Shown: piece after piece, positions 9,578 through 61,255 of the stretch | How the letters are laid out: every line of letters starts with the position of its first letter | How positions within the stretch are numbered: the first letter of the stretch is position 1 | From: a bacterium | Lineage (GTDB): Bacteria > Patescibacteriota > Minisyncoccia > Phycocordibacterales > UBA9973 | Direction of reading: 5' to 3' | Assembly: GCA_037143195.1 (NCBI GenBank) | Contig: JBAWZD010000002.1 | Coordinates: 207,157 to 271,156, forward strand | DNA length: 64,000 nt | Notes under the pieces: generated by a model | Told to the model about the DNA's origin: nothing | Database searches by the model: none | Seen by the model: only the letters and a program-made list of their open reading frames with translations | Made by a program: the position numbers and the translations under genes

Positions 9578-9603
9578 AATATTTTAATTATTGGTATCAA
9601 AAC

Positions 9604-9628
9604 AAAAAGCACCCATTGGGTGCTTTTT
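9604..9628. terminator. bidirectional intrinsic terminator aaaaagcaccc-att-gggtgcttttt; second hairpin at 9642-9658
   Basis: A-tract/stem/T-tract read directly. Confidence 0.65.
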
Positions 9629-9663
9629 GTTTTGTATTTGAGGGTACTACGTACCCTTGGTAC

Positions 9664-28157: not shown

Positions 28158-29240
28158 ATGTATACAAAAATAATTAAGCCGATTTTGTTCCGTTTTGATC
28201 CTGAGCATGTGCATGATTTCTTTGTCGCGACGGGGCGAGTGCTTGGGGCGACCGCGCTCACGCGCGGTCTTGTCAGCATGTTTTGTCGCTACGAAAATCC
28301 AATGCTCGAGACAACGGTCTCGGGGATTCACTTCAAAAACCCCATCGGCCTCGCGGCTGGATTCGACAAGGACGTGCAGCTCACGAGTGTCATGCCCGCA
28401 GTTGGCTTCGGATATATGGAAGTCGGTGCGGTGACGCGCCACCCGTATGAAGGCAACAAAGGTCTTCGTCTCGCACGGTTACCCGCGGATCAATCACTCA
28501 TTGTGTACTACGGACTCAAAAATATTGGTGCCGTTGAGATCGAAAAGAAACTCAAGAAACTTTCGTTTTCATTTCCCGTTGGACTCAATATCGCCAAGAC
28601 AAATCGCGCAGACATTATGGGAGAGAAGTCCGTCGAAGATTATGTCGAGACATATCGTATGCTTGGCAAGTATTTCGCGTATGTGACGATCAACGTCTCA
28701 TGCCCGAATGCGCAAGACGGATGTACGTTTCAAGATCCTGCCATGCTCGACGACTTGCTCGGCGCATATGCCAAAGAGGAAAAAGTGTGTCCAATCTTTC
28801 TCAAAATTTCGAGTCATTTGAGTGAGCAAGAGATCGATGCCATTCTCGCCGTCGTAGAAAAGTATTCATTCATCGATGGATTCATCACCGGCAATCTTTC
28901 AAAGCGTCGCGATATTCTTGATTTGAAATCAGACAAGGCGCGTTTGGATTTGATTCCTGCGGGTGGAATTTCTGGCAAGCCAGTGCAAGAACTCACCACA
29001 AACGAGATTCGATATATCTACCAGAAGACAAAAGGGAAGTATGTCATCATCGGTCTTGGTGGCGTCTTCACCGCCGAAGATGCATATGAAAAGATAAAAG
29101 CTGGAGCATCGCTCGTGCAAATCATCACTGGCCTCATTTACGGCGGTCCAACAACAGTAAAAGACATCAACAAAGGTCTCGTCGCGCTCTTGAAACGCGA
29201 TGGCTACAAAAATATCGCTGAAGCTGTAGGGAAAGAATAA
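28158..29240 (+). CDS. pyrD: dihydroorotate dehydrogenase (quinone), class 2
   Basis: N-terminal membrane-association extension, NVSCPN and GLGGV motifs. Confidence 0.9.
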   Translation: MYTKIIKPILFRFDPEHVHDFFVATGRVLGATALTRGLVSMFCRYENPMLETTVSGIHFKNPIGLAAGFDKDVQLTSVMPAVGFGYMEVGAVTRHPYEGNKGLRLARLPADQSLIVYYGLKNIGAVEIEKKLKKLSFSFPVGLNIAKTNRADIMGEKSVEDYVETYRMLGKYFAYVTINVSCPNAQDGCTFQDPAMLDDLLGAYAKEEKVCPIFLKISSHLSEQEIDAILAVVEKYSFIDGFITGNLSKRRDILDLKSDKARLDLIPAGGISGKPVQELTTNEIRYIYQKTKGKYVIIGLGGVFTAEDAYEKIKAGASLVQIITGLIYGGPTTVKDINKGLVALLKRDGYKNIAEAVGKE

Positions 29241-29379
29241 GCTTGGGTTCGCAAAAAACAAAAAAGCACTTTTGAAAGTACCGGCGTAAATTTCTGAAGA
29301 AATTTCGCCTCACGCTCGCGCCGTCGCGCTCCGCGAGTACTTTCAAAAGTGCTTTTTTGTTTTTTGCGAACCCAAGCTT
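29239..29379. repeat. 141-bp palindromic terminator element A: perfect 43-bp outer arms spanning stop codon to stop codon of convergent genes, with GC-rich core homologous to the element at 58974-59096
   Basis: inverted repeat and core identity read directly. Confidence 0.7.
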
Positions 29380-29935
29380 ACTGCGTCTTCGCTGTCAGCG
29401 TACCTTTGTGCCACGGCGTGCCAAGAGCGGGAAGTGCCCAGTAATCAAGTCCGAGATATCCCACGACGCGCCACGCAAGGATGAGTCCAAGCGAAAGGAT
29501 AAGGAGCACGGGGTTTACGCTCACCGTTCCCGCGAGGAGATAGTTGAGATTCATAAAGAATCCAAAGAATGCGGCGATGCCAGCAAACAATCCAATGATG
29601 AGCGCAACACCGACGAGCACTTCGCCGTATGCAACGACGTGTGACCACAATGCTGCATGAGGAAGAATGGCGTGAGAGAGGAACCATCCATACCAACTTT
29701 GGACATCAGGATGGTCGCCAACAGTTTTGGCGAGGGCTGCTCGCAAAAATCCTGTAAGTGCGCCACCTGCTTGTCCACCAACCCACGCAGGTGAGTGGAC
29801 TTTGTCCAAGCCTGCTTCCAGCCATTGCCATCCGACATACACGCGGACGATGAGCCAGAACCAGGCGAACTTGGGACTTTGTAAAATAAACTGCGCGAAC
29901 TTTGGTTCTTCAATTACCTGTGAAGAAGTATTCAT
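29378..29935 (-). CDS. DoxX family membrane protein
   Basis: hydrophobic profile, DoxX-like N-terminus. Confidence 0.6.
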   Translation of the reverse strand: MNTSSQVIEEPKFAQFILQSPKFAWFWLIVRVYVGWQWLEAGLDKVHSPAWVGGQAGGALTGFLRAALAKTVGDHPDVQSWYGWFLSHAILPHAALWSHVVAYGEVLVGVALIIGLFAGIAAFFGFFMNLNYLLAGTVSVNPVLLILSLGLILAWRVVGYLGLDYWALPALGTPWHKGTLTAKTQ

Positions 29936-33541: not shown

Positions 33542-33569
33542 GGGTGATGTGCGGTGCGATTACAAATGA

Positions 33570-33735
33570 ATAATCATGATTGGGGAAGTGAGGTGAAAAT
33601 CCTCCACAGTGCCGCTACGGTTATAGTCCGACTACCAATCATTGATGTAGTAATGAAACTTTTTGTTTCATCCCGAGCAGGAAATGGTCGCGCGTACGCG
33701 CGACCCCGGTACTCCTCTCCTCGGGGGAGTTTTTT
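33570..33735 (+). promoter_or_regulatory. candidate cobalamin riboswitch with terminator-type expression platform (hairpin plus TTTTTT at 33709-33734)
   Basis: GGGGAAg-tga-GGTGAAAATCC-tcca-CaGtgCCGCtACgGTtA matches the AdoCbl core GGGAA..GGUGnAAnUCC..CnGnCCCGCnACnGUnA; AGCAGGAAA resembles a degenerate B12 box. Confidence 0.6.
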
Positions 33736-41709: not shown

Positions 41710-42261
41710 ATGGAACACAAAAAATACATCATTGCCTTCGTTGGACACGCCTGCACCGGCAAGTCTGCTGCTGCACGTGCCCTCGCTGAAAAAGCCTCTG
41801 ATATCTATCTCGTTTCGACAGACAAACAAAAGTGGCTCCTTTCAGGATACGATCGTAATACGCATCCGGTACCTATCAAGGAGATTACGTTTGGATTGTT
41901 TAAAGCTGTATGCAAAACGGGACTTCCGATTCAGCTTGAATACATTCGAACAAAGGAAGACTATTTTGCATGTCGACGCGTGGCGAAAAAATTTGGGTAT
42001 GAATTGTTTGTGTTCGAGTTTCTCGCTCCGCTCCCCGTACTCCTCGAACGATTCCATGCACGTGTTGCAGATGCGAAGGCGACTGGCAAGAAAATTTCCA
42101 TCACTACTGAAGAAGTATTTTTACAAAATATTCAAAAAGGATACTATGCTCCGTCGAACGCAATGCGATTTGATACGACACAAGTATCGACTGAGGAAAT
42201 TGTCGCGAAGGTTATCGATCGGCTCGGATCAGATTTTACTCATATTGAATTACAACCATAA
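41710..42261 (+). CDS. P-loop NTPase/kinase-like protein
   Basis: Walker A GHACTGKS. Confidence 0.6.
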   Translation: MEHKKYIIAFVGHACTGKSAAARALAEKASDIYLVSTDKQKWLLSGYDRNTHPVPIKEITFGLFKAVCKTGLPIQLEYIRTKEDYFACRRVAKKFGYELFVFEFLAPLPVLLERFHARVADAKATGKKISITTEEVFLQNIQKGYYAPSNAMRFDTTQVSTEEIVAKVIDRLGSDFTHIELQP

Positions 42262-43121
42262 TGGAACAAGAATATATCGTTTTACTTTTTTATAAATTCG
42301 TCGATATCGCAGATCCAAAAGGATTTGCGGATGTGCATCGCGCGAAAGCTACAGAACTTGGACTCAAAGGCCGATTGCTCGTGGGTGAAGAGGGTATCAA
42401 TGGCACACTCGAGGGCACACGTACTTCGACGGATGCGTACAAGGAATTCATGAAGCAGGACCCTCTGTTTCGCGATATGAAAATCAAGGAAAGCGTCGGT
42501 ACTGGAAAGTCATTTCCAAAATTGAAGGTCAAAGTGCGTGATGAGATTGTGACGCTCGGTGCAGGACGTTTTAACGTTGCAGAAGAAACAGCGACTGAAC
42601 TTTCACCACGCGAACTCGAAGAATGGTATGAAAACGACAAAGACTTCGTCGTGCTTGATTTGCGCAACGACTTTGAAATCAAAAGTGGAAAGTTTGACCG
42701 CACGATCGATCCAGGGCTCGTACATTTCCGCGACTTGCCACAAAAGATGGAATCGATGAAAGATTTGAAAAACAAAAAAGTGGTGACTGTCTGTACCGGA
42801 GGGATTCGTTGTGAAAAGGCGACATGTCTCTTGAAACGTGAAGGATTCACCGATGTGTATCAACTCAAAGATGGTATCCATACATATATGGAGCAGTACC
42901 CAGGCAAGCATTTCAAGGGAACACTCTTCGTGTTCGACGATCGTATGACCACAGACGTCGTTCCAACTCCAGAAAAAGAAGTCATCGGCACCTGTTTTTT
43001 CTGCGGAACACAAACTGAAAACTATTGTTCTGACGACAGCGTCCGCCCATCACGTAAGATTCTAGTGTGTGCTAGTTGTTACGAAGTAGAAAAACATCGA
43101 CTTCGCGCAAACGTAAAGTAA
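42261..43121 (+). CDS. trhO: rhodanese-domain tRNA uridine(34) hydroxylase (UPF0176/YceA)
   Basis: LLFYKF...GRLLVGEEGINGT N-terminus, rhodanese Cys loop. Confidence 0.8.
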   Translation: MEQEYIVLLFYKFVDIADPKGFADVHRAKATELGLKGRLLVGEEGINGTLEGTRTSTDAYKEFMKQDPLFRDMKIKESVGTGKSFPKLKVKVRDEIVTLGAGRFNVAEETATELSPRELEEWYENDKDFVVLDLRNDFEIKSGKFDRTIDPGLVHFRDLPQKMESMKDLKNKKVVTVCTGGIRCEKATCLLKREGFTDVYQLKDGIHTYMEQYPGKHFKGTLFVFDDRMTTDVVPTPEKEVIGTCFFCGTQTENYCSDDSVRPSRKILVCASCYEVEKHRLRANVK

Positions 43122-43135
43122 GGTTCATTGTACAA

Positions 43136-43253
43136 CCGGACAAATAAAAAACTCTTTTGAAGAAGGCCTTTCGCAGGCGCTTGGCGCCGAGAAGCTCGCG
43201 CGCGAGCACGCGTGACGAGTTGCCTTTTCAAAAGAGTTTTTTAATTTGTCCGG
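43136..43253. terminator. 118-bp palindromic bidirectional terminator between convergent genes
   Basis: ccggacaaataaaaaactcttttgaa / ttcaaaagagttttttaatttgtccgg arms with GC-rich core. Confidence 0.65.
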
Positions 43254-43257
43254 CTAT

Positions 43258-43404
43258 TTAGCGAACCGGATTTTTGGACATTCGTATGAGAGTTAATATA
43301 ACTGCTACTACGAGGAGAAGGTGAATGTACATACCTCCGACATGGAATACGAACGCTCCGAGAATCCATGCGACGCCGAGAACAAATGCGATTGTTGCAG
43401 ACAT
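43258..43404 (-). CDS. lmo0937-family small membrane protein (48 aa; below the ORF-track cutoff)
   Basis: MSATIAFVLGVAWILGAFVFHVGGMYIHLLLVVAVILTLIRMSKNPVR resembles the family consensus. Confidence 0.65.
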   Translation of the reverse strand: MSATIAFVLGVAWILGAFVFHVGGMYIHLLLVVAVILTLIRMSKNPVR

Positions 43405-57119: not shown

Positions 57120-57761
57120 ATGCATATCAAAAAAATTGGCCATTGTTGTCTTGTTATAAACACCGGCTCCGTCACTATCATGACTGATCCAGGTGGCTTT
57201 AGTACGGCGCAGAACGACGTGCGGGGTATCGATATCGTACTCGTTACCCATGAGCATCACGATCATTTTCACATTGATTCAGTGAAGCAAATCATTGCGA
57301 ATAATCCGAACGTAAAAATCATCACCAATGCTACTGTTGGCGCTCTTTTGACCGCAGAGAATATTCCATTTGAATGTGTCGCACAAGGAGGAGAAAACAA
57401 AGCTCACGGGGCTCATATCGAAGGCTACGGATGTACGCACGCGACGATATATCAAGACATGGGTCAGACAGAGAATACTGGATACTTTATCGATGGCAAA
57501 CTTTTCTATCCAGGAGATGCATTTACGAATCCAAATCGTCCTATTGATATTCTCGCGCTTCCATCAGCTGGTCCGTGGATGAAGGTAAGTGATGCAATTA
57601 CCTATGCATGTATGCTTAAACCACGTGTGGCCTTTCCGGTACACGATGCGATCATGAGTCAGCACTTCGTTGGATTCTTACATGGAATGCTTGAGAAAAT
57701 ACTCAGTCAAAATTCGGTGACCTTTATCGGATTGAAAGAGGGAGAAGAAAAAGATTTTTAG
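57120..57761 (+). CDS. MBL-fold metallo-hydrolase (alternative start 57093)
   Basis: HEHHDH motif; tatact -10 at 57107-57112 suggests near-leaderless start. Confidence 0.65.
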   Translation: MHIKKIGHCCLVINTGSVTIMTDPGGFSTAQNDVRGIDIVLVTHEHHDHFHIDSVKQIIANNPNVKIITNATVGALLTAENIPFECVAQGGENKAHGAHIEGYGCTHATIYQDMGQTENTGYFIDGKLFYPGDAFTNPNRPIDILALPSAGPWMKVSDAITYACMLKPRVAFPVHDAIMSQHFVGFLHGMLEKILSQNSVTFIGLKEGEEKDF

Positions 57762-58945
57762 TCTCGGTGTGAAGGTACCCACCATGTCTCGTTTTTTTCG
57801 AGATAGAATGATACAACGAAACCAATCATGAGGATGATGCCGAGGACGGCGAAAATCATTTGAAAGGGAAGGACGGCGAGCGCAAGCGCTCCAAGGAGTG
57901 GTGCGAGGACATACGAGAGTGGTCGCACATCTGCGAAGAGGGCGATAACACCAGGGTCGTCTTCTTTTGCGACTTTGAAGAAATGAATCTCTGTCATTGC
58001 TTCGACTGTTGCTGCTCCGATACGTGAGATGAAAAGGAGTGCTCCAACAGTCAGTGCTGTAGGTGTATTGAGGAGTGCGAGTGAAAAGACGCTTCCTGCC
58101 ATGAGCAAGAATCCAAGAGCGGAGAGTTCTTTTTCACTGCCAAGCCAATCAGCAATCTTGCCGAGTGGGTAGTCGAGTATCACAAAGGTTGCGAGCATGA
58201 CGGAGAAAATTATTCCGATCGTATCCCATGAGAATCCGAGATATTTCGAGAGATAGATTGGCGTATAGACGACCATCCATGCGTAAAAGAATTGCAGAAT
58301 GAAGTTTGCCGAAATTACATTGCGGAGTGTACGCGTGCGGAGCGTGTGACGAAAGGCACTTTCGAATTTTCCAAAGTCATAGGTCGTATCTTTGTACTCA
58401 CCGAGACCGATATATGTCGCGATTGCGAGCACTGCAAAAATAGCGAGACCAAGTACATATGTTCCCGCGTATCCACCGAGGTCGATGACTTTGCCTGCGC
58501 AAAACGGCCCGAGCATGATACCGACGTTTCCAAGCAGAAGGAAGAAGCCACGTGCAAGACCGCGCCCTTTTTTGGGTTCAAGATGATGAAAGAAAATATT
58601 GAGTGAGAACAAAAGCATGTTCATCGTGACGAGATACACGATGAGTGCAACGACATGCAAAATAGTGTTTACTGGTGCTGACAATACGAGAAGAGAGAGT
58701 GCGTAGCATGTTCCGCTCGCAAAGAAGTACATTTTGTTTCCGTATCGTTTGAGCGTTGGTCCTGCTTTCGTCAATATGAGAATACTTACGATTGCACTGA
58801 GCGCATACAGCAATCCAACCTTTTCAGGACCAATACTATTTTCAATATAACTTGAGTTTGTGTAGAGCGTTACTGCTCCGGCAAACGAAAAAAGAAAATT
58901 AATGAGATACACTACTCCGCGCATGCGGATCGTCTTTTTGTGCAT
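57758..58945 (-). CDS. MFS transporter
   Basis: 12-TM profile. Confidence 0.8.
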   Translation of the reverse strand: MHKKTIRMRGVVYLINFLFSFAGAVTLYTNSSYIENSIGPEKVGLLYALSAIVSILILTKAGPTLKRYGNKMYFFASGTCYALSLLVLSAPVNTILHVVALIVYLVTMNMLLFSLNIFFHHLEPKKGRGLARGFFLLLGNVGIMLGPFCAGKVIDLGGYAGTYVLGLAIFAVLAIATYIGLGEYKDTTYDFGKFESAFRHTLRTRTLRNVISANFILQFFYAWMVVYTPIYLSKYLGFSWDTIGIIFSVMLATFVILDYPLGKIADWLGSEKELSALGFLLMAGSVFSLALLNTPTALTVGALLFISRIGAATVEAMTEIHFFKVAKEDDPGVIALFADVRPLSYVLAPLLGALALAVLPFQMIFAVLGIILMIGFVVSFYLEKNETWWVPSHRD

Positions 58946-58973
58946 GTGTATATTTTAGCAGAGTATATGTTAT

Positions 58974-59096
58974 TTGCCGAATTAAAAATACCCACTTTCA
59001 AAAGTACCGGCGTAAAATCCTGAAGGATTTTTGCCTCACTCTCTCGCCGTCGCGCTCCGAGAGTACTTTTGAAAGTGGGTATTTTTAATTCGGCAA
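58974..59096. repeat. 123-bp palindromic terminator element B, abutting the rnj stop codon; core homologous to element A (29239-29379) with compensatory substitutions
   Basis: perfect 34-bp arms; 56-nt core about 84 percent identical to A. Confidence 0.7.
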
Positions 59097-59101
59097 ATTG
59101 C

Positions 59102-61255
59102 CTACACTGCGAGAAGAACTGGAATCACGAGAGGACGCTTCGCTGTTTTTTGGAACAAGAATTTCGAGAGATTGTCTCCGAGTGTTCCACGGAGCATCTC
59201 GAAGTTTACTTGTTGCATGTCATGTGCGCCATCTTCGATGGAATGCTTCACGATTTGGCGTGCCTCATGCAAGAGTTCTTGTGATTCTTTGAGGTACACG
59301 AATCCGCGAGAGATAATATCAGGAGACTTCTTGAGTTTGCCTGTCTTCTGGTCGATTGTCGCAACGATAACGAACATACCGTCTTGAGCGAGCATTTGTC
59401 GGTCACGAATGACGACTTCCTGTTCATCTCCAACAGTAAATCCATCCACCATCATGAGTCCACTTGCTGCCTTTTCCTTGCGGAGAGTCATCTTTTGACC
59501 GTCAGCCGAGATTTCAATAATCGATCCGTTGTCTGGGACAACGATGTGTGATTCTGGAATACCAATCTCTATTCCCAGACGCTTGTGTGACTGAAGCATG
59601 TAGTGACTACCGTGGATTGGAATGAAGAATTTTTCATTCACTTTGCGGTGAAGCCACTTGATGTCTTCTTTGTTTCCGTGACCTGTCGCGTGGACGTAGT
59701 CTTCTCCACTCGTTCGGTAGGTGACGATGTTCACACCTTGGCGAGCGAGACCATCTTTCATTTTTGCGACCTGAACTTCGTTTCCAGGGACAATCGAAGC
59801 TGAAAGAATGATTGTGTCGTTCTTCTTGAGTGAGAATTTCTTGTGTGTCTTTTGTGCGGCACGATTGAGTGCGGCAAATTCTTCGCCTTGGGCACCAGTC
59901 ATGAGAATGATGATGCGATCAGGAGGGAAGTTGTCGATCTCTTCAATCGAGATGAGTGTGTCCTTCTTTGGTTTGAGCAATCCTGCTTCGATAGACACTT
60001 CCATGTTTGTTTTCATGGAGCGACCTTCGAGCACGACTTTCTTTCCGAGTTCTTCGGCGATCTCGATGATCTTGATGAGACGAGTGATGTGTGAGGCGAA
60101 GGCTGCGATGATGAGACGTCCGCCTTTGTTTGCACGGATGAGACGATCGAGACCTTGGTGCACGCGCACTTCAGGCAATGCGAATCCTTCATTCTCAACG
60201 TTGGTTGAGTCTGTCATGAGAAGCAAGGTCTTATTTTTGTCGAAGATAGAGTATTCCTTTTCTTCGTCATCAGAAACGATACCGTCGATCTGGTCGAGCT
60301 TGTAGTCTCCTGGGTTTACGATCCAGCCGTGTGGTGTTTCGAGAATGATACCCATCGAGTCTGGCACCGTGTGTGTCACACCGAAGAATTTCACGCGCAT
60401 TTTGCCGACAGTGATGACTTCGTCACGCTCAACAACAATCGCATTGAGTGGTGGAAGATGTGGGAATTCTGTCTGGCGCTTCTTCATGAGAAGCACTGTA
60501 AGGTTACGAGAATACACTGGTGGATTGCCGATACGTGAAAGTACGAGTGGAAGTCCTCCGATGTGGTCAAGGTGACCGTGGGTGATGAAGACCGCGCGGA
60601 TTTTGTCCTTGCGTTCTTCGAGGTACGTTGTGTTTGGAATAATGTAGTCGATACCAGGGGTACTGTCGCCAGCAAATTGCATTCCCGCATCAATGACGAT
60701 GATGTCATCTTTGGTTTCGATTGCAGTGAGGTTCTTTCCGACTTCTTCGACTCCTCCGAGTGGAATGATACGGTACACACCTTCTTCTGGCGGAGGAATT
60801 TGTGGGCCACGCTTTCGTGGAGCATTTTCTGTACTGCCAGCTTCGGGCATGCGTGGGTGACTTGGAGCCTTACCACGACGCTTGTGTTCTGGATATTGAT
60901 ACGATGGACGTGATGAATGACGCGCGCCACCTTGATGTGCAGGTTTTGCACCTGCGACAGGGGTATGTGCGCCCGCCACTGCTACGCCTGCTTCACGATT
61001 TGGATTGTGAGGCATACGCTGGGGATTGTTTGGATTGTGTGGACGATGATTTGGATTGTGTCCACCTGGTCCGCGATGATGATGTGGGCGACGTGGTCCG
61101 AGTGGGGGAAGCGATGCTCCTCCGACGCCTGCAGTAGCACGTTCGATTGCTCCGTCGATTCCAGAACCTCCACCGATGTTTGATCGGGGGATGTCGTTCT
61201 TGAGTGACTGGAGAATTGCGCCGAGTGGCGACTTTGGTTTTTGATTTCTAGGCAT
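59102..61255 (-). CDS. rnj: ribonuclease J with about 170-aa disordered Gly/Pro/His-rich N-terminal extension
   Basis: ITHGHLDHIGG metallo-beta-lactamase/beta-CASP motifs. Confidence 0.85.
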   Translation of the reverse strand: MPRNQKPKSPLGAILQSLKNDIPRSNIGGGSGIDGAIERATAGVGGASLPPLGPRRPHHHRGPGGHNPNHRPHNPNNPQRMPHNPNREAGVAVAGAHTPVAGAKPAHQGGARHSSRPSYQYPEHKRRGKAPSHPRMPEAGSTENAPRKRGPQIPPPEEGVYRIIPLGGVEEVGKNLTAIETKDDIIVIDAGMQFAGDSTPGIDYIIPNTTYLEERKDKIRAVFITHGHLDHIGGLPLVLSRIGNPPVYSRNLTVLLMKKRQTEFPHLPPLNAIVVERDEVITVGKMRVKFFGVTHTVPDSMGIILETPHGWIVNPGDYKLDQIDGIVSDDEEKEYSIFDKNKTLLLMTDSTNVENEGFALPEVRVHQGLDRLIRANKGGRLIIAAFASHITRLIKIIEIAEELGKKVVLEGRSMKTNMEVSIEAGLLKPKKDTLISIEEIDNFPPDRIIILMTGAQGEEFAALNRAAQKTHKKFSLKKNDTIILSASIVPGNEVQVAKMKDGLARQGVNIVTYRTSGEDYVHATGHGNKEDIKWLHRKVNEKFFIPIHGSHYMLQSHKRLGIEIGIPESHIVVPDNGSIIEISADGQKMTLRKEKAASGLMMVDGFTVGDEQEVVIRDRQMLAQDGMFVIVATIDQKTGKLKKSPDIISRGFVYLKESQELLHEARQIVKHSIEDGAHDMQQVNFEMLRGTLGDNLSKFLFQKTAKRPLVIPVLLAV

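Follow-up and report, generated by a model that had tools for sequence, protein, structure and literature searches.

The 64,000-nucleotide (nt) stretch analyzed here (contig JBAWZD010000002.1 of assembly GCA_037143195.1; hereafter, the window) is placed by homologues of its RNase J, pyrD, and DoxX genes in Candidatus Paceibacterota, a group of the Candidate Phyla Radiation (CPR/Patescibacteria). Between the convergent genes pyrD and DoxX it contains a 141-bp palindrome, copy A, which is probably a member of a dispersed family of palindromic DNA elements. A preliminary description, made from the sequence alone, had presented copy A and a second copy as palindromic terminator elements under selection for secondary structure. 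The locus contains the following features.

28158..29240, plus strand: pyrD (dihydroorotate dehydrogenase); its stop codon forms the first 3 bp of the palindrome
29238..29281, no strand assigned: left arm of copy A (5' half of stem P1), 44 bp, perfectly complementary to 29337-29380
29282..29336, plus strand: core of copy A, 55 nt, 60% GC
29337..29380, no strand assigned: right arm of copy A (3' half of stem P1), opening with the inner conserved arm GTACTTTCAAAAGTG
29378..29935, minus strand: membrane protein of the DoxX/DoxD family, convergent to pyrD; its stop codon forms the last 3 bp of the palindrome

The palindrome of the pyrD-DoxX gap and similar elements in the window

The 44-bp inverted repeat of copy A (29238-29281 / 29337-29380) has no mismatch, and the entire 137-bp gap between the stop codons of pyrD and DoxX is palindromic. 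The stop-to-stop inverted repeat of the preliminary description is thus borne out; the lengths given there (arms of 43 bp and a core of 56 nt) follow from another way of counting the junction base. The arms are AT-rich (34% GC vs. 60% in the 55-nt spacer). The first three bases of the left arm are the pyrD stop codon TAA (29238-29240); farther in, the arm has an A-tract (29253-29265), and it closes with the inner conserved arm CACTTTTGAAAGTAC (29267-29281), while the right arm contains the T-tract TTTTTTGTTTTTT (29353-29365) and ends with the DoxX stop codon, seen as TTA on the plus strand (29378-29380). Within the core, hairpin P2 consists of ggcg/cgcc (29283-29286 / 29306-29309) and aaatttc/gaaattt (29288-29294 / 29299-29305) around the loop tgaa, and hairpin P3 is formed by GCGC-CGTC-GCGC (29318-29329) with the flanking helix cgc/gcg (29313-29315 / 29333-29335).

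The predicted folding energy of copy A as RNA is -88 kcal/mol on the plus strand (z = -14.5) and -93 kcal/mol on the minus strand; folded as DNA, it reaches -66 kcal/mol, with z between -14 and -15 across the RNA and DNA folds. The same long stem with a branched tip is predicted on either strand. A 47-aa open frame running through copy A had no match among 1.84 billion protein representatives.

Two further elements of similar architecture are located in the same window.

58972..59098, plus strand: copy B; its arms (58972-59007 / 59063-59098) match perfectly over 36 bp and flank a core of 55 nt (59008-59062) that is oriented as in copy A
43136..43251, no strand assigned: element C; a 65-nt core (68% GC) is enclosed by AT-rich arms that contain A/T tracts and end in CTTTTGAA

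Copy B lies 3 nt past the stop codon of RNase J (59102-61255) and 26 nt ahead of the start of a major facilitator superfamily (MFS) gene (57758-58945). Both genes are on the minus strand, and their transcript would contain the reverse complement of the core. The cores of copies A and B, compared over 56 nt, differ at eight positions (about nine in the preliminary description), and the 24-nt junction motif CACTTTYRAAAGTACCGGCGTAAA has exactly two occurrences in the window vs. none expected in shuffled sequences. The compensatory pairs reported for these cores are present, two of them in the AT-rich hairpin and one, a change from g-c to t-a, adjoining the GC hairpin, as is the TG/CA swap in both arms. 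Beyond the inner ~15 nt the arms of the two copies show little similarity, again as described earlier.

Element C is situated between the stop codon of a plus-strand gene (42261-43121) and a convergent 48-aa open reading frame (ORF) on the minus strand (43258-43404). Its core is unrelated to those of copies A and B, and no relatives of this core were found in ~1.2 Mb of related DNA. At positions 9598-9634 the window also contains an 18-bp hairpin (CAAAACAAAAAGCACCCA / TGGGTGCTTTTTGTTTTG) that is perfectly paired and has a loop of 1 nt. The arm is similar to the outer arm of copy A (AAAACAAAAAAGCAC), and the hairpin may be either a core-less relative of copy A or merely a similar terminator with A/T tracts.

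Distribution and conserved structure of the family

To the window we added 80 RNase J neighborhoods from metagenomes and loci from exact-protein look-ups, which together made up 1.16 Mb of Paceibacterota DNA. We searched this set for AT-rich inverted repeats whose arms are 30-110 nt apart, and also with an nhmmer profile and the covariance model R1. Eleven distinct copies were identified at five loci in eight sequence sources, namely the window and L201, L228, L248, L264, L276, L278, and L288.

Family copies: winA, winB, L201B, L288a, L228a, L248b, L278b, L288b, L278c, L276c, L264c

The elements are about 85-140 bp long, and nine of the 11 copies begin 0-23 nt past a stop codon. The preliminary description would have been refuted by the existence of only two copies with no further covariation, and neither proved to be the case.

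The family consensus is a three-way junction formed by P1 (the long arm stem), P2 (an AT-rich hairpin of 7-10 bp with a 4-nt loop), and P3 (GCGC-CGTC-GCGC). The core of ~55 nt is asymmetric and folds on either strand. Its conserved unpaired nucleotides are TC...TC...CTC...AG and the CGTC loop of P3. Over 32 consensus pairs in the 11 copies, 89.8% of alignment cells are paired, vs. 67% in a shuffled control and 43-58% in controls with slid partners. Changes on both sides were observed in 27 of the 32 pairs, and none of 500 shuffles reached any of the observed measures. Hence, the homology of copies A and B and the maintenance of a secondary structure through numerous double substitutions, both claimed previously from two copies, hold for the family as a whole. 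At that, both strands of the element fold equally well, and the numbers of G.U and A.C cells in the alignment (14 and 13, respectively) are about equal, hence neither strand is favored.

Two copies, L288a and L228a, reside within the ORF of nifS (cysteine desulfurase), between the conserved segments IRHFRK and YPLFHTDA. They are stop-free and have no U-tract; the ORFs that contain them encode 471 aa (L288a) and at least 422 aa (L228a). Thus, a palindromic repeat is inserted in frame, without stop codons, into a conserved gene, as in the palindromic elements of Rickettsia discussed below. This position proved to be a hot spot.

L288:2709-3158, L228:465-899, L234:2755-3180, and 15 other loci: nifS insertion between IRHFRK and (Y/F)PLFHTDA

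In these 18 loci the site is occupied by 27-141 nt, always a multiple of three, and several of the longer inserts are palindromic. Besides the family of copies A and B, the inserts include a type E core (L234, see below) and other short palindromes (L274, L276, L277, L282).

Rfam 15 has no family that corresponds to the element. Its scan of the window matched only an AdoCbl-II (cobalamin) riboswitch away from the element (33563-33645, plus strand, 55 bits), near genes for a class II ribonucleotide reductase and a cobalamin adenosyltransferase; six related loci gave tRNAs only, and near copy A nothing but generic long-hairpin (miRNA-precursor) models matched, with scores far below gathering. 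The pattern TACCGGCG-N36-48-CCGTCGCGCTCC in genome contigs retrieved, among the matches listed, GC-rich chance matches and no family member, and the pattern AAGTACCGGCG-N36-48-CCGTCGCGCTCC had no match in metagenomes. Three scans of viral contigs gave chance matches in coding regions only, with none found by the covariance model, and the phage and plasmid collections contained no family match. The Logan contigs of two strains (L001, L204, L289, L291) end ~25-30 nt into the arms of copy A, those of the window's own strain at ~27 nt in each arm; hence, assemblies with short k break at the palindrome, which helps to explain the rarity of such elements in assemblies.

Gain, loss, and probable copying of cores and arms

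Elements of the family are gained or lost between close relatives. Copy B is absent from a relative in which an RNase J fragment is 95% identical and the gap between RNase J and the MFS gene is 18 bp, and in a 79% identical relative a plain GC-rich terminator is found in its place. A relative with 80% identical pyrD has neither copy A nor another palindrome at this site, its pyrD and DoxX genes overlapping by 24 nt. The site upstream of a conserved tRNA gene is empty (12-40 nt, no hairpin) in three genomes and filled by the A/B-type family in three others, two in one orientation and one in the opposite orientation, while a seventh genome contains a different core family. Multiple dispersed copies and empty orthologous sites for A, B, and the tRNA-upstream locus are features of transposable elements of the miniature inverted-repeat kind (MITEs). 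With respect to the transcript of the upstream gene, the core is in the sense orientation at two loci, antisense at two, and mixed at one. Sense cores were observed at locus b and in L276c, and antisense cores in L278c/L264c, winB/L201B, and the two copies within nifS.

Cores and arms have separate histories. Sources L278 and L288 have RNase J genes with 81% nucleotide identity, yet the cores of L288a, L278b, and L278c, from three loci with unrelated arms, are 95-96% identical. Conversely, the orthologous copies L278b and L288b are 85% identical in the arms and 57% identical in the cores, and the same pattern is seen in L288a vs. L228a. Near-identical cores in unrelated arms and different cores in orthologous arms are thus both documented. 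The outer arms are locus-specific, those at nifS being different from the arms of the other copies, and only the inner part is common: ~15 nt in A and B, and ~25 nt in L248b, L278b, L288b, L278c, and L264c.

The arms of one copy change in concert. In the strain ERR4193932, whose pyrD is 96% identical to that of the window, copy A is approached by contigs from either gene, pyrD and DoxX, and each of the two sides reads TAA-ACTCGGGCGCAAAAATAAAAATACC, while both arms in the window read TAA-GCTTGGGTTCGCAAAAAACAAAAAAGCAC. About six substitutions and several indel positions are mirrored in the two arms of copy A, and each arm is 3 nt shorter in ERR4193932, the spacing between pyrD and DoxX being 131 nt vs. 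137 nt in the window. For copy B, comparison with a closely related strain from ENA (RNase J 98% identical in protein and 90% in nucleotides) revealed two arm pairs with full compensation, among them a transversion from C-G to G-C, together with uncompensated mismatches and one bulge. In E. coli genetics, quasipalindrome template switching is a process in which one arm of an imperfect palindrome is copied onto the other, yielding simultaneous "compensatory" changes that include indels. The mirrored changes of copy A, with their indels, are of this kind, the difference being that quasipalindrome mutagenesis is a mutational mechanism and not an element family. Mirrored indels over such a short divergence fit arm-to-arm copying better than selection on independent mutations.

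The empty sites, the presence of both orientations, the lack of a strand signature, the exchange of cores, and the in-frame nifS copies favor a DNA element. We therefore consider it reasonably probable, judging from the sequences compared, that copy A belongs to a dispersed family of palindromic DNA elements that are mobile or convertible and occur in Candidatus Paceibacterota, and that this family behaves like selfish mobile DNA and not like a dedicated RNA gene. The core would spread or be replaced at the DNA level, either by transposition into hairpin tips or by repair of tip breaks templated by other copies, and the arms would be held complementary by intrastrand template switching or arm-to-arm conversion. 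If such copying runs outward until coding sequence is met, the exact stop-to-stop extent of the palindrome in copy A would be accounted for. Elements that are located between genes and carry A/T tracts in their arms (A, B, C) would act as factor-independent bidirectional terminators and 3'-end hairpins.

Several observations weigh against the mobile-element interpretation. The copy number is low (11 copies in the 1.19 Mb of sampled DNA that was searched). Comparison of filled and empty sites revealed no recognizable target-site duplication, the relatives being too distant to exclude one of 2-4 bp, and no transposase or other autonomous partner was noticed in the list of window ORFs, which was not searched systematically. 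Some copies (L278c/L264c; L248b/L288b) are old and vertically inherited with compensated stems, which also fits a selected function. That the CGTC loop and the unpaired TC...TC...CTC junction are conserved suggests a factor that recognizes their sequence, and this factor could be an RNA-binding protein. Finally, termination, template switching, and mobility are all deduced from sequence.

The arms of copy A carry A6CA6 / T6GT6, and on both strands the stem GCAC...GTGC is followed by TTTTTTGTTTTTT, i.e., a stable stem-loop followed by a U-rich tract, which is the usual signature of an intrinsic terminator. The perfect arms imply that the pyrD and DoxX transcripts would both end in a stable hairpin and U6GU6. 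U-rich runs on both strands were also observed in B and C. Copy A is thus probably a bidirectional intrinsic terminator, and so, probably, are B and C. The designation of these sequences as terminator elements is therefore retained for the local use of some copies, on the basis of the hairpin and U6GU6 on both strands in A, and dropped as a description of the family. Termination appears to be a secondary, locus-specific use shaped by the arms, with no evidence here that the core is needed for it.

Alternative explanations and known repeats

The idea of selection on RNA structure leads to an explanation in which the family is a cis-acting structured RNA, i.e., a three-way-junction motif of 3'-untranslated regions or terminators that is bound by a protein or processed from the long stem (e.g., by RNase III). 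The strong covariation in all three helices, the conserved loop and junction nucleotides, the location of nine of the 11 copies 0-23 nt past a stop codon, and the retention of orthologous copies across genomes with ~80% nucleotide identity of RNase J are all expected from such a motif. However, at about half of the loci the core runs antisense to the transcript, G.U cells are not in excess of A.C cells, two copies lie in a translated ORF and lack a U-tract, and the corresponding sites of close relatives are empty. In addition, there is no Rfam match, and selection of point mutations would hardly produce the indels that a near-identical strain shows mirrored in both arms of copy A. Hence, of the two features of a strand-specific structured RNA gene, neither a constant orientation nor a predominance of G.U over A.C was found. 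The conserved structure with double changes stands, whereas selection at the RNA level is disfavored by the presence of the core in both orientations and by the near-equality of G.U and A.C cells, and, given the in-frame nifS copies without U-tracts and the mirrored arm changes of copy A, it can no longer be considered the best interpretation. We regard this explanation as unlikely.

The same orientation independence is compatible with a DNA-level site, at which folded single-stranded or cruciform DNA is bound by a host recombinase, nuclease, or replication protein, with the core as the binding module; in principle, such a site would be comparable to the attC sites of integrons or the folded attachment sites of phages. 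Here Watson-Crick conservation would be strand-symmetric, as observed, and the predicted stable DNA hairpins, the short GC hairpin with an invariant loop, and the cassette-like exchange of cores within fixed arms all agree with such a role. Against it, no partner protein was identified, the copies are few and scattered over unrelated loci, one of them inside a gene, close relatives do without these sites, and the arm ends lack the R/L boxes of attC; we consider it rather improbable. As for ordinary intrinsic terminators that are alike by chance or through one local duplication, with no family behind them, the A/T tracts flanking the stems of A, B, and C and the long, perfect, core-less hairpins that also occur in the window (e.g., 9598-9634) point in this direction. 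This explanation has very little probability and can be regarded as excluded, as the 24-nt junction motif occurs twice vs. none expected, homologous cores are found in seven further loci from other Paceibacterota sources, cores at different loci are 95-96% identical across species, and some copies reside inside an ORF.

Four other candidates were considered and rejected. Insertion into a pre-existing terminator hairpin is not a general rule, as the empty tRNA-upstream, nifS, and pyrD-DoxX sites contain no palindrome. As for a programmed inversion switch, no orientation polymorphism was seen among three ENA scaffolds and the window. The resemblance of GCCGTC to the DNA-uptake sequence of Neisseria is of no consequence, the density of copies being far too low. 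The hammerhead-like CTGAAGA in the P2 loop is replaced by CTGAAGG in copy B, the other loops are unrelated, and there is no Rfam ribozyme match.

Returning to the mobile or convertible DNA element, a more specific and decidedly tentative possibility is that the ~55-nt core is a minimal mobile cassette, which would be inserted or exchanged at the tips of long hairpins and recognized as folded single-stranded DNA by a CPR recombinase or nuclease. Several core families without mutual relationship (the A/B type, element C, and the core types D, E, and F of related loci) would then share the hairpin-tip niche, including the permissive loop of nifS.

Types D, E, and F are other repeat families observed in the related loci. 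The type D core (tcgcttatccctc...cgcccacacctactc, with inner arms AAAATTTCT) was found at L234:4417-4526, L243:4422-4527, L248:4403-4501, and L248:6479-6587; at the orthologous locus it is inverted in L234 relative to L243 and L248. The type E core (ggtctggct...tccgaggac) is enclosed in AT-rich arms at L234:2925-3009, L248:6022-6110, and L275:13405-13480, and so is the type F core (gtagggcccctttggggtaaag) at L277:5813-5890, L280:9212-9295, and L281:2211-2288. A 14-nt inverted repeat around AT-rich spacers of ~90-97 nt, present in many Paceibacterota loci, is different from the A/B family.

L259:2767, 15990, 16570; L261:16400; L276:19219; L288:3614 and others: inverted repeat ATCCCGTTAGAAGC

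In the vicinity of copy B, the MFS gene has a conserved TGCTAAAAT, which resembles an extended -10 box, ~6-7 nt before its ATG, both in the window (58946-58971, minus strand) and in L208:5606-5680. This suggests that the MFS gene has a promoter of its own, located just downstream of copy B, and a leaderless or near-leaderless mRNA. The RNase J of the window (59102-61255, minus strand) has a low-complexity N-terminal extension of ~150 aa rich in Pro, His, Asn, and Gly; the length of this extension varies among relatives (proteins of 540-719 aa).

Comparison with known repeats shows partial similarities. A classical MITE is variable in its interior and is marked by conserved terminal inverted repeats and by target-site duplications, whereas the family described here has a conserved interior and unique outer arms, with no duplication found. 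The REP/REPIN elements, which are mobilized by RAYT transposases, consist of conserved REP arms and a variable spacer and form long hairpins often located at gene 3' ends. They share with our elements the extragenic palindromes, the long hairpins, and a similarity that is higher within than between genomes, but the conservation is reversed here, the spacer being conserved and the arms variable, and neither a GTAG-type head motif nor a RAYT gene was noticed, with no search aimed at them. The attC sites of integrons are defined by conserved outer R''/R' boxes (RYYYAAC ... GTTRRRY) around a variable center; the arm ends of copies A and B (AAGCTTGGG... and ATTTGCCG..., respectively) do not contain these boxes, and it is the center and not the ends that is conserved. 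Bidirectional Rho-independent terminators are similar in that A and C lie between convergent genes with an A-tract and a T-tract flanking the stem. They differ in that the "loop" is here a structured module of 55-65 nt common to distant genomes, the stems reach 36-44 bp, and other family members reside inside an ORF or lack U-tracts.

The closest behavioral analogy is provided by Rickettsia palindromic elements (RPEs), palindromic repeats of ~100-150 bp that are found both between genes and in frame in conserved metabolic genes, where they are translated into additional stretches of peptide, and that coexist as several families (PMC10969869). Both are small palindromic repeats of reduced genomes occurring between genes and, in our case, in frame within nifS. 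The likeness is one of behavior, as the present family belongs to another phylum, has an asymmetric conserved core, locus-specific arms, and one genic hot spot (nifS), and most of its copies directly follow stop codons. SPRITE, BOX, and RUP of Streptococcus pneumoniae, Correia (CREE), and ERIC are MITE-like intergenic repeats that form hairpins in transcripts; some of them (SPRITE) resemble or act as Rho-independent terminators, and Correia elements can invert, their RNA being cut by RNase III (PMC10969869). The elements reported here are likewise dispersed, non-coding, hairpin-forming, and mostly intergenic.

A full-text literature search revealed no description of dispersed palindromic repeats in CPR/Patescibacteria. 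Within this literature the family is new for CPR bacteria, and its conservation pattern is opposite to that of RPEs and terminator-like MITEs. CPR/Patescibacteria genomes are tiny and thought to be repeat-poor. Palindromic elements of this kind are systematically under-represented in metagenome assemblies. The family also calls for caution in the covariation-based discovery of RNA motifs, as the "compensatory substitutions" in one of its hairpins are better explained by arm-to-arm copying than by selection. It further shows that intergenic "terminators" of CPR genomes can be modules that are imported and exchanged, and that these modules can also enter the gene of an essential-type enzyme in frame. 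If the core is indeed a mobile cassette, it would represent a new class of elements that target hairpin tips and supply ultra-small genomes with new terminators and protein insertions.

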